A stretch of 64,000 nucleotides of DNA from an uncultured Actinomycetota bacterium (GTDB lineage: Bacteria > Actinomycetota > Actinomycetes > Mycobacteriales > Mycobacteriaceae). A model generated the notes under the pieces. The model was not told the origin of the DNA. It did no database searches and was given only the letters and a program-made list of their open reading frames with translations. Each line of letters begins with the position of its first letter. Position 1 is the first letter of the stretch. The translations under genes and the position numbers were made by a program. This document shows positions 10,752 to 12,711 of the stretch, piece by piece. The stretch lies in contig CAVVRW010000005.1 of assembly GCA_963750755.1 (NCBI GenBank), forward strand, positions 72,605-136,604. Reading direction: 5' to 3'.

Positions 10752-12461
10752 CTACGGTTGCGCCCAGCTCGCCAGGTAGACGCGTCCGTCCTGACCGACG
10801 GCGTAGAGGTCGATCGCTCCCGAGGTCTTGGCGACAGCGGTCACAGGAGTTCCCTGTTGGAACGTGCCGGCAGGCAGGATGGGCGCGAAACCCACCCACC
10901 CCTGTCCGCGCCAGGTGGCCGTGTAGACAAGGCCGTCCTTACCAACGGCGAACACATCGATCGAGCTCCCGTCTCGCGAAATCCCCGTGATCGGGGTTCC
11001 GATGGTGAAGTTGCCGGACGCGAACTGCGAAAAGCCGGACCAGCTGCTGCCTCGCCACCAAGCGGTGTAGGCCTGTCCGTCCGTGCCGATCGCGAACACG
11101 TCCACCGAGTTGGTGTCGCGTGCGAGCGCGGAGAACAGTGTGCCTTGCGGGAAGTTTCCCGACGCGAACTGCGCGAAGCCCGCCCAGTTTTGGCCGCGCC
11201 ACCACGCTGTATAGGCATTGCCGTCCTCGCCGACGGCGAACAAGTCAACCGAACTGCCATCCTTCGAGACCCCAGCAATCGGCGTGTTCTGGCTAAAAGT
11301 TCCCGACGCGAACCGCGAAAAGCCGGACCAGCTGGCGCCGCGCCACCACGCCGTATAGGTGTTTCCATCCTCGCCGACCGCGAACAGGTCGACCGAGTCC
11401 TCCCCGCGCGCGACGGGCGTGATCGGAGTGCCCTTGCTGAAGCTTCCCGATACAAACTTCGAAAAGCCGGACCACCCGGCGCCGCCGCGCCACCACGCGG
11501 TGTAGGCATTGCCATCCAGGCCGACCGCGAACAGGTCGACCATGAGCGGGTCCCTGGACATGCCGCTGAGTGGGGTGCCCTGATTGAACGTGCCGCCGGC
11601 GGGCACCGCCCAACCGGCCCATTGCTGACCGGTGTGCCACCACGCGGTATACACCTGGCCGTCGACGGCGATCCCGAAGAGGTCTACGTCGTCGGGGGTG
11701 CGAGCGATCCCCAGCACGCGCGTGGGCTGTTGGAAAGTCTCGACGCCGACGGGCATCCACGGCTGCCAGTCCGGCGGAGCGTAGGCGCAGTCGCCACTCG
11801 GCGCCGGGCAAGATCCGGCTGACGCGGGCTTTGCGATCGACGCTATGAAATAGCTCGCGCCCGGCGGGGGCGTGCCACCCGAGGAGCCGAGGTAGATGCC
11901 GTTGTTGTCAAAGAAGTTTTGCAAGGAGTTGTTGCAGTTGCCCGCACACGGATCGCAGACCTCGGGGTTGGGCCAATCGGCATGCGGGTCGACGACGAGC
12001 TCGGCGAGCTCGTGACTGAGCGCGTCGGCGTATGCCCCTGCGGTGTCGAGGAGTGTCAGCGAGCTTCCGTTCACGTTGACGAATGCGTACGCGACAACAC
12101 CGTGATCGTGGTAGCCGCCGATTCGCTGCGCGCGATCGCCGTCAGTATTGGTCATCGCGGGCGGGTTCAACACAACCACAGCACTGCTGTCGGACGCGAG
12201 ACCGTTGGCCTGCACGATATCGATCAGCCAGTTGCTCAGATCATCGTCGCTGTACGTATTCCCGCTCACCGACGCTGTGTACTGGAGCATCGTCGGGTGG
12301 ACCGAGAGTTGGTTGCCGCCGTACTGCCTGCAATACGCCGAGATCTTCGGAGCCGCTTTGGTCGCATAGTCGATTGCGGTCTGCATATCGGCGGCCGAGA
12401 CCGATGCGGCGCTGGCGCCAGCAAATGTGACCTCTACGAAGTAAAATGTTCCCGAGAACAT
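10752..12461 (-). CDS. Two-domain protein: unknown ~240-aa N-terminal domain (HELAE motif, Cys-rich segment) plus seven ~47-aa repeats typical of a lectin-like beta-propeller (DUF346/PLL/tectonin-like)
   Basis: 569-aa ORF. The repeats read VDLFAVGxDGNxYTAWWRGxxWSGFxxFASGxFxxxTPIxGVSRDGSS, seven times. No signal peptide is evident. Confidence 0.75.
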   Translation of the reverse strand: MFSGTFYFVEVTFAGASAASVSAADMQTAIDYATKAAPKISAYCRQYGGNQLSVHPTMLQYTASVSGNTYSDDDLSNWLIDIVQANGLASDSSAVVVLNPPAMTNTDGDRAQRIGGYHDHGVVAYAFVNVNGSSLTLLDTAGAYADALSHELAELVVDPHADWPNPEVCDPCAGNCNNSLQNFFDNNGIYLGSSGGTPPPGASYFIASIAKPASAGSCPAPSGDCAYAPPDWQPWMPVGVETFQQPTRVLGIARTPDDVDLFGIAVDGQVYTAWWHTGQQWAGWAVPAGGTFNQGTPLSGMSRDPLMVDLFAVGLDGNAYTAWWRGGAGWSGFSKFVSGSFSKGTPITPVARGEDSVDLFAVGEDGNTYTAWWRGASWSGFSRFASGTFSQNTPIAGVSKDGSSVDLFAVGEDGNAYTAWWRGQNWAGFAQFASGNFPQGTLFSALARDTNSVDVFAIGTDGQAYTAWWRGSSWSGFSQFASGNFTIGTPITGISRDGSSIDVFAVGKDGLVYTATWRGQGWVGFAPILPAGTFQQGTPVTAVAKTSGAIDLYAVGQDGRVYLASWAQP

Positions 12462-12471
12462 CGCGAACCTC

Positions 12472-12711
12472 CTAACCCGTCCACTGGACCCGCGGGAAGT
12501 TCACCTTCGCGAGTTCCGTCAGGTCGAGTGGAGCAGCCACGGTGGTCGGTACGTGGCGATGTAGGTTCGCCAGCACGGATACGGGGATCACGCTCATCCA
12601 GCCTTGCTTGGGCTCCGGTTGCGTAAATACTTGCGGAGAATTCTGCTGGAGCCACTTTAGGTTTTTGCGCGCACGTGTGGCCGACAGCCAGGGTTGTTTT
12701 GCCCTATTCAT
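12472..12711 (-). CDS. Hypothetical 79-aa basic protein, upstream partner of the propeller-repeat protein
   Basis: An ATG at 12711 is preceded by AAGGAGAG. It ends 10 nt before the next start. Local GC is lower than the surroundings. I recognise no family. Confidence 0.5.
   Translation of the reverse strand: MNRAKQPWLSATRARKNLKWLQQNSPQVFTQPEPKQGWMSVIPVSVLANLHRHVPTTVAAPLDLTELAKVNFPRVQWTG

Follow-up and report, generated by a model that had tools for sequence, protein, structure and literature searches.

Genes and domains of the cassette

The stretch analysed here (hereafter the window) comprises 64,000 nucleotides (nt) of contig CAVVRW010000005.1 from an uncultured bacterium of the Mycobacteriaceae, and our subject is a pair of adjacent open reading frames (ORFs) on its reverse strand. 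The ORF list places a large ORF of 569 amino acids (aa), composed of a domain with an HExxE motif and a seven-bladed beta-propeller, at 10752..12461 (-), and a small ORF of 79 aa at 12472..12711 (-). The small protein carries the helix motif SATRARKNLKWLQ, ends in ...FPRVQWTG* and is read below, from homology, as a detached leader module. Its Shine-Dalgarno sequence, AAGGAG, lies at 12717..12722 (-), and its start at ATG 12711 is supported because P0136, P0242 and L085 start at the same place. At the junction (12462..12474, -) the TAG stop of the small ORF (12474-12472) overlaps an AGGAGG (12473-12468), which is followed after 6 nt by the large ORF's ATG at 12461, leaving a spacer of 10 nt and a +1 difference in reading frame. 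An earlier note, made from this DNA without database searches, had described both ORFs, a strong Shine-Dalgarno site for the small one, a basic small protein and the absence of an obvious signal peptide, and the sequence bears it out on each count. The small protein holds 10 K+R against 3 D+E (+10/-3), compared with +24/-47 for the large one; neither protein has a signal peptide or transmembrane segment (maximum Kyte-Doolittle 19-residue mean 1.24), and the hydrophobic N-terminus of the large protein is strand beta1 of an AlphaFold2 (AF2) model, with a predicted local distance difference test score (pLDDT) of 98.

Profile searches and the AF2 model delimit a catalytic-type domain of an unnamed family at residues 1-235 of the large protein (11757..12461, -). 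The three motifs pointed out earlier are present: GGYH (Y117 and H118; residues 115-118, 12108..12119, -) on strand beta4 (116-120), HELAELVVD (H150, E151, E154 and D158; residues 150-158, 11988..12014, -) on helix 145-157, and CDPCAGNC (C169, D170, C172 and C176; residues 169-176, 11934..11957, -), with NPEV (E167) just before it. The domain ends with CPAPSGDCAYAP (C218 and C225; residues 218-229, 11775..11810, -). All four are placed by conservation, the first two also by the model. Searches of Pfam, NCBIfam, PADLOC and PHROGs with both proteins and with family members matched lectin models only and nothing on the N-domain, and neither the single sequence nor a 57-sequence profile matched any PDB sequence, in agreement with the earlier failure to name a family.

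Homologues of the N-domain are nevertheless widespread. A word-indexed search returned 56, at no more than 53% identity and all annotated "hypothetical", and an exhaustive profile search returned 406 representatives of 50%-identity clusters at E<=1e-3; the domain profile matches the window protein with E 1e-93. Scanning GTDB species representatives gave 77 loci, all in metagenome-assembled genomes (MAGs) except L084, a weak match in an isolate. The taxa include many Thermoplasmata, Nitrosocosmicus, Acidobacteriota, Eremiobacterota, Chloroflexota, Alphaproteobacteria, Actinomycetota, Verrucomicrobiota and Bacteroidia, and a first whole-protein scan of a genome-contig collection, which does not include the window's own genome, found no relative. 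The phyletic distribution is that of an unnamed family across soil MAGs of archaea and of many bacterial phyla, with at least 406 clusters at 50% identity, which lies outside all curated libraries searched.

Residue conservation was counted over 177 aligned family members. D139, H150, E154, E167, D170, C172 and C225 are found in 177/177 each, H118 in 176, E151 in 172, D158 in 171 and Y117 in 163. The metal site that had been suggested for this domain is consistent with these conserved His, Glu, Asp and Cys residues. C176 and C218 covary and usually disappear as a pair. A disulfide is more consistent with this than zinc bound by four cysteines, and for the same reason we disfavour Zn(Cys)4 as an interpretation of the cysteine cluster; two disulfide pairs, C176-C218 and C172-C225, are probable from the alignment.

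Inteins usually occupy functionally critical motifs. In this family one lies inside the HExxE motif of P0104 (SHEIAEM|CVDP), and others stand before the invariant C172 in P0113, P0273 and P0219 (NPEVCD[SP]|C[AG][GP]NC), positions that would mark the HExxE and CxxC motifs as functionally critical. It is uncommon for such a protein family to have inteins at two conserved sites.

The C-terminal part of the large protein (residues 245-569; 10755..11729, -) forms seven blades of 48-49 aa, the final one shortened to 34 aa, with a repeat period of 144-147 nt in the DNA. The seven tandem repeats reported before thus stand, with blades slightly longer than the roughly 47 aa then given. The NCBIfam model NF052348 (beta_propeller_lectin) matches with 158.6 bits and E 2.1e-46 over model positions 3-328 of 337, below its curated cutoff of 200 bits, and the equivalog models CV39L and BP39L score 160.7 and 102.3 bits against cutoffs of 350 and 400. 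Among PDB sequences, phmmer matched PLL2 (6rfz, E 4e-7) and PHL (5mxe) in alignments that cover several blades. Pfam DUF346 does not match the propeller at E<=1, whereas 5 of 73 long family members do match it. From blades, period, model and PDB matches, we place the propeller, by sequence, in the PLL/PropLec7 type, as a divergent relative outside every curated subfamily; the earlier suggestion of a DUF346/PLL/tectonin-type propeller is upheld and narrowed.

The closest comparison is with the PLL/PHL and BP39L/CV39L lectins of Photorhabdus, Burkholderia and Chromobacterium (PropLec7A/7C; classes as listed in PMC11186620), with which the window propeller shares seven Trp-rich blades of about 48 aa, and sugar binding would be expected of it. 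PLL/PHL lectins are marked by pockets between the blades that bind fucose or O-methylated sugars. PLL lectins have no signal peptide, as in the window protein, yet are found extracellularly (PMC12203525). Unlike these free-standing lectins, the window propeller is the C-terminal module of a larger, enzyme-like protein. Its nearest relatives, which share 40-48% identity with it across about 330 aa, likewise occupy the C-terminal end of their proteins, behind Peptidase_A4, Peptidase_S8, Astacin, FAD oxidase or unknown domains. In P0261 and P0262 the same propeller type follows another unnamed N-terminal domain, with GHELVEVCTDPEGD, whose motif order QYG…P.G…G.H…HExxExxxDP is that of the HExxE domain. 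This domain possibly belongs to a very remote branch of the superfamily; an hhalign comparison of the HExxE-family profile with P0261 was not significant (probability 1.7%).

Other members of the family carry other modules. Among the 73 long members, the C-terminal additions are a PLL-type propeller in 15, FG-GAP_3 in 9 and DUF346 in 5, besides fungal fucose lectin, tectonin, tachylectin, RSL-like, putidacin-like lectin, DUF5648 and others. By its domain composition the large protein is a chimerolectin, that is, a lectin-type domain joined to a distinct non-lectin domain (concept reviewed in PMC12355970). In one such protein, the Marasmius oreades agglutinin (MOA), which joins a lectin to a protease, both domains are needed for nematode toxicity (PMC6272156). 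MOA and the window protein both combine a lectin with a hydrolase-type module and lack a signal peptide; MOA differs in being eukaryotic, in its ricin-B and papain-like folds and in having no leader encoded in trans.

The small ORF as a detached leader

In most family members an N-terminal leader of about 75 aa, with the consensus xxCxTRxLKNARxLQ..P.I.P..EP.EGF.S, precedes the domain in the same chain and is followed by a linker and then by PLFxGT. The small ORF aligns with this leader, and the large ORF begins at the PLFxGT position, as MFSGT. The closest leader is the N-terminus of the single-chain P0136, with 55% identity over 78 aa (E 9e-27). We conclude that, judged by homology, the small ORF is the family leader, the counterpart of the fused N-terminal segment, and therefore that the two-gene cassette is one ancestral gene split in two, by fission of a single-chain gene at the linker between leader (about 75 aa) and domain (about 235 aa). 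The family can accordingly be defined by H118, D139, H150, E154, E167, D170, C172 and C225 together with a T-R-x-x-K-N leader helix, in cis or in trans; the window pair has all of these residues, and the leader profile matches the small ORF with E 2.5e-20. Its anatomy, a leader, an HExxE domain and a variable lectin module, is thereby set out, and the candidate active site becomes testable.

This homology corrects the earlier two-gene cassette: the genes are not unrelated. An unrelated small partner, such as a regulator, antitoxin or immunity protein encoded with a lectin effector, would account for the tight coupling and the basic charge of the small protein, but homology ties the small ORF to the N-terminal segment of this very family, and it matches nothing in PADLOC or Pfam; we consider such a partner very improbable. 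A toxin-antitoxin or effector-immunity pair is marked by a small partner of a distinct family, which is not what was found here, and PADLOC gave no hit. A neutralising, immunity-like role of the leader itself is possible and falls within our best reading below.

How often the two parts are separate was counted by script for 90 domain matches in the loci fetched to that point: 59 are fused, 10 are split and 21 have no leader hit. In five of the 10 splits the break falls within the domain and has the look of a frameshift or an assembly error. Searching with the leader profile retrieved 41 standalone proteins, many with a length of 83-92 aa. The window junction itself recurs: two independent metagenome contigs, L001 and L002, carry it unchanged, and the orthologues L085 (small ORF 84% identical in amino acids) and L174 (82%) keep both stop and ATG, their junctions reading …[QE]WTG*, 9 or 10 nt, then ATG-MFSGT. 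Between the window and L085, at a synonymous divergence (dS) of about 0.5, the small ORF has a ratio of nonsynonymous to synonymous divergence (dN/dS) of 0.21 and the large ORF, over 314 codons, one of 0.14. The split is kept under purifying selection, and the small ORF stays together with the large one, as the idea of a cassette had implied.

We weighed these data against the view that the pair is a decaying pseudogene, a former single gene broken by a frameshift or nonsense lesion. The ORFs do stand in different frames, 10 nt apart, where other genomes have one gene; the adjacent LuxR genes are degraded; and a metagenomic variant, P0059, has a frameshifted propeller. Nevertheless, the split is maintained in orthologues at the dS and dN/dS just given for both parts, a strong Shine-Dalgarno sequence and an ATG stand exactly at the domain start, and at least six other distinct loci share the architecture with ATGA coupling, which makes decay extremely improbable. 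The variant P0059 (L001, 4089-5708), 539 aa long, is frameshifted in blade 5 with its C-terminus out of frame; either the assembly is at fault or the gene is decaying in the population concerned.

Recoding, in which a programmed +1 frameshift or stop readthrough joins the two ORFs into one chain, is no more probable than decay. The short spacer would suit it, as would L085, where a single TAG interrupts what is otherwise one frame, but the frame relation is not conserved: the spacer is 9 nt and in frame in L085, and 10 nt and +1 in L174 as in the window, while the ATGA loci stand in the -1 relation. No conserved recoding signal therefore exists among the orthologues; no slippery motif was noted, and a Shine-Dalgarno sequence and ATG are present.

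The ATGA stop/start overlap of leader and domain ORFs occurs in seven fetched loci at six distinct places (L040, L043, L086, L090/L091 with one shared junction, L092 and L093). There the leader ORFs end in …[RK]W[QV][RK]* and the domain ORFs start with M[SN]xLF[SN]GT. These leaders are of the subtype C[FY]TRALKN…GFGTG, unlike that of the window, which is closest to fused S-type leaders. Because the leader subtypes differ, the fissions were probably independent and the boundary was split at least twice. Two leader subtypes were thus cut at the same boundary, and selection then maintained the cut, which suggests from sequence that the leader is an autonomous module able to work in trans, an unusual property for prosegment-like regions.

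Among the other loci, L087-L089 (P0239) hold a truncated leader-plus-domain fragment of 119 aa, after which a gene for a large Pro-kuma_activ (sedolisin-type) protease follows closely. Such a protease also lies about 3 kb from P0007 (L006), possibly by coincidence.

Fold of the N-domain and role of the leader

An AF2 model of the N-domain, built from the family alignment, reached a pLDDT of 94.1 and a predicted template-modelling score (pTM) of 0.90. The modelled element order is b1-aA-b2-aB-b3-b4-b5-aC, with GGYH on b4 and HExxE on aC, and this is the order of adamalysin-type metzincins, the metzincin catalytic domain having a five-stranded sheet, a backing helix and an active-site helix. Foldseek against the PDB gave best matches that include ADAMTS4, ADAM33, ADAM8, fragilysin, snake-venom metalloproteinases, OgpA and CpaA. 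The top one, ADAMTS4, is weak (E 5.5e-3, probability 0.97, template-modelling (TM) score 0.33), and many ADAM, snake-venom metalloproteinase and fragilysin matches fall at E 0.03-0.7. Modelling and structure search, both proposed in the earlier note, thus yielded weak metzincin matches and assigned no family. Against viral structures, Foldseek found only one uncharacterised giant-virus protein, which is uninformative.

The N-domain resembles the adamalysin/ADAM(TS) metzincins, fragilysin and CpaA (PDB 6o38) in element order and in a His-Glu-x-x on the third long helix, and shares with metzincins a Cys-rich C-terminal subdomain; metzincins also use prosegments. It departs from them in having HExxE…D in place of HExxHxxGxxH/D, in sequence and profile similarity that is undetectable, and in TM scores of about 0.3. 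PDB 6o38 we take to be the glycoprotease CpaA, with a separately encoded chaperone, CpaB; CpaA-like enzymes, with glycan-binding modules and a separately encoded partner, may be compared with the window pair. The leading reading of the model, still unproven, is that the N-domain is a zincin-like metallohydrolase, and we infer a metal-dependent hydrolase activity, probably that of a peptidase.

For the leader we turned to the AF2 model of a fused homologue, P0002. Leader residues 11-90 are modelled at pLDDT 85-97, mostly extended or non-regular, with one helix, over ATRALKNARHLQK, and T12, R13 and K16 do not vary among the aligned leaders. The model points to a defined interface between leader and domain, and the charges of the two window proteins are complementary. 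A leader that binds the domain could inhibit it or act as its chaperone. The prodomains of subtilisin and alpha-lytic protease are intramolecular chaperones and inhibitors and can work in trans. Like them, the leader would be an N-terminal segment of about 75-90 aa packed on a catalytic domain, as modelled. To our knowledge classical prodomains are always encoded in cis and cleaved, whereas here natural two-gene versions of leader and domain exist.

Taken together, our best reading, to which we give about an even chance, is that the pair encodes a lectin-targeted metallohydrolase with a prosegment-like leader that acts in trans. The two ORFs would form one functional unit derived from a single-chain ancestor. 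The large protein would be a metal-dependent hydrolase of the chimerolectin type, directed by its lectin and most likely a peptidase or amidase, whose N-domain would have an alpha/beta fold of adamalysin-type zincin order bearing the constellation H118, D139, H150/E151/E154, D158, E167 and D170. The basic leader, made just upstream and in about 1:1 proportion to the large protein, would associate with the acidic catalytic domain and, in the manner of a prosegment, chaperone or inhibit it up to the arrival of the enzyme at its target, which by analogy may be extracellular or in another organism.

Several results weigh against this reading. The domain carries HELAE, so that its motif is HExxE…D rather than HExxH, and the second His position of HExxH is Glu in 177/177 members; the sequence HExxExxxDP lacks the Gly turn and does not follow the third-ligand pattern of HExxHxxGxxH/D. 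With H150, E154 and D158 spaced at i, i+4 and i+8 along one helix, binding of a single ion by all three is impossible. No genuine HExxE precedent was found in the literature, where texts with "HEXXE" describe His-ligated HExxH-type enzymes; we read these instances as misprints of HExxH. Foldseek against the PDB gave nothing at E<=1e-3, with TM scores of 0.30-0.35; profile searches of the PDB and Pfam with the N-domain family gave nothing; and an hhalign comparison of the family profile with an astacin was not significant and is meaningless. No conserved gene neighbours of the homologues were found that give functional hints. A signal peptide is absent here and from most family members, and because of this the extracellular role rests on analogy with PLL lectins and on disulfide-like covariation of cysteines. 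Finally, 19 of 87 leaders, that of the window among them, have Ser in place of the conserved leader Cys, and the leader Cys does not covary with C169. A universal cysteine switch was considered and is excluded on both grounds, the window subtype having Ser here.

The main rival, which we consider somewhat unlikely, makes the leader an obligatory structural subunit of a stable two-chain enzyme, or of a single chain in the fused relatives, with the T-R-x-x-K-N helix completing the active site or the substrate-binding surface. A leader packed confidently in the fused model, the invariance of T12, R13 and K16, translational coupling that gives about 1:1 synthesis, and a leader/domain linker in which no conserved cleavage motif is visible would all suit such a subunit. 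However, the leader is very short or undetected by the hidden Markov model in P0031, P0043, P0046 and P0001, and there are the 21 cases without a leader hit, so that the domain can apparently exist with little leader; the N-domain alone also models at pLDDT 94 without it.

The N-domain may instead not be an enzyme at all and may serve as a binding or adhesion module stabilised by metal or disulfides, the whole protein being a multivalent lectin or adhesin. A family or fold assignment that never reached significance is consistent with this, and the Cys-rich C-terminal subdomain could be purely structural. We nevertheless regard it as improbable: seven charged or His residues, HExxE among them, are near-invariant over the 177 members in archaea and bacteria; inteins have inserted at these motifs; and the same propeller type is joined to bona fide peptidases in paralogous architectures.

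Returning to the metallohydrolase with a leader acting in trans, a broader proposal can be made, though only tentatively. The HExxE domain may found a new family of metal-dependent hydrolases with a zincin-like fold and His, Glu and Asp ligands, whose prosegment is supplied either in cis or as a separately encoded, translationally coupled protein (a "two-gene zymogen"). Such a family would be exchanged horizontally among soil archaea and bacteria and aimed at the glycans of competitors or predators through interchangeable lectin modules.

The genomic island around the cassette

The cassette lies in a 6.8-kb accessory island (9777..16549) between dnaK and an amino-acid permease gene, identified by comparison with relatives. 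DnaK places the window in the Mycobacteriaceae, and the closest relatives of the permease are in uncultured soil Mycobacterium MAGs (85-91% identity). The two genes are divergent neighbours, separated by about 220-310 nt, in at least 15 related MAGs of soil Mycobacterium, compared with 6.8 kb in the window, and the accessory status proposed for the pair follows from the absence of the island there. In MAG L095 the island is present (orf10066, LuxR and orf15708), and the slot that holds a LuxR relic and the cassette in the window holds another cargo gene, for a protein of roughly 135 aa with a signal peptide.

The earlier hint of horizontal acquisition is upheld by this empty site in relatives, while its argument from composition is weak. 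The local GC content does drop, as noted, to 0.56-0.60 at 12200-13000, mostly over the small ORF and the intergenic or upstream region, but the third-position GC content (GC3) of the large ORF, 0.80, falls within the host range of 0.76-0.90, and composition as a sign of recent transfer was rejected. The evidence for acquisition is the empty site in relatives, not base composition, and the cassette is accessory and mobile among contexts, not compositionally foreign. Through it, environmental mycobacteria gain a PLL-like lectin chimera in their accessory gene pool; its medical relevance is low because the gene is confined to an uncultured soil lineage.

Two LuxR remnants flank the pair, as first described. 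One is a 3' relic of about 30 codons (10623..10750, +; …ANTHTHVCAIMTKLGVHNRTQAAAYAQQQ), convergent with the large ORF and recognised by its translation and by 90% identity to 15565-15642; it is a second paralogue cut down to its last 30 or so codons and fused directly to a 54-nt motif. The other is a full-length LuxR-family pseudogene (AAA_16 … helix-turn-helix; 12988..15662, +), divergent from the cassette and identified by Pfam AAA_16 and a three-frame reading, in which two frameshifts are needed for read-through.

A motif scan found three copies of the 54-nt motif, whose core is GGGTGATTACCTGATATT, in the island, against 0.01 expected. One (12929..12982, +) separates the cassette from the LuxR gene and precedes the small ORF by about 220 nt; a second lies just past the 3' end of the cassette (10574..10627, +), and a third at 16380-16433. 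Copies thus flank orf10066, the LuxR relic, the cassette/LuxR pair and the permease gene, in each case on the 5' side. L095 has three copies (about 488-546, 1097-1151 and 4527-4583), and L085, which has a LysR flank instead, has one at about 1640-1700 (-), about 175-190 nt upstream of its small ORF; related genomes without the island lack the motif. Rfam assigned no family to the island or the motif, and a promoter and terminator scan found nothing above chance. The motif may serve as a LuxR operator or promoter module; alternatively, it may be a site of recombination marking off the slots for cargo genes.

Within the island, orf10066 (10066-10605, -) encodes a protein of 179 aa that has no Pfam match. 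L095 has a gene at the same position with 70% identity to it, and the N-terminus of the protein, RRRR plus a hydrophobic segment, is similar to a signal sequence.

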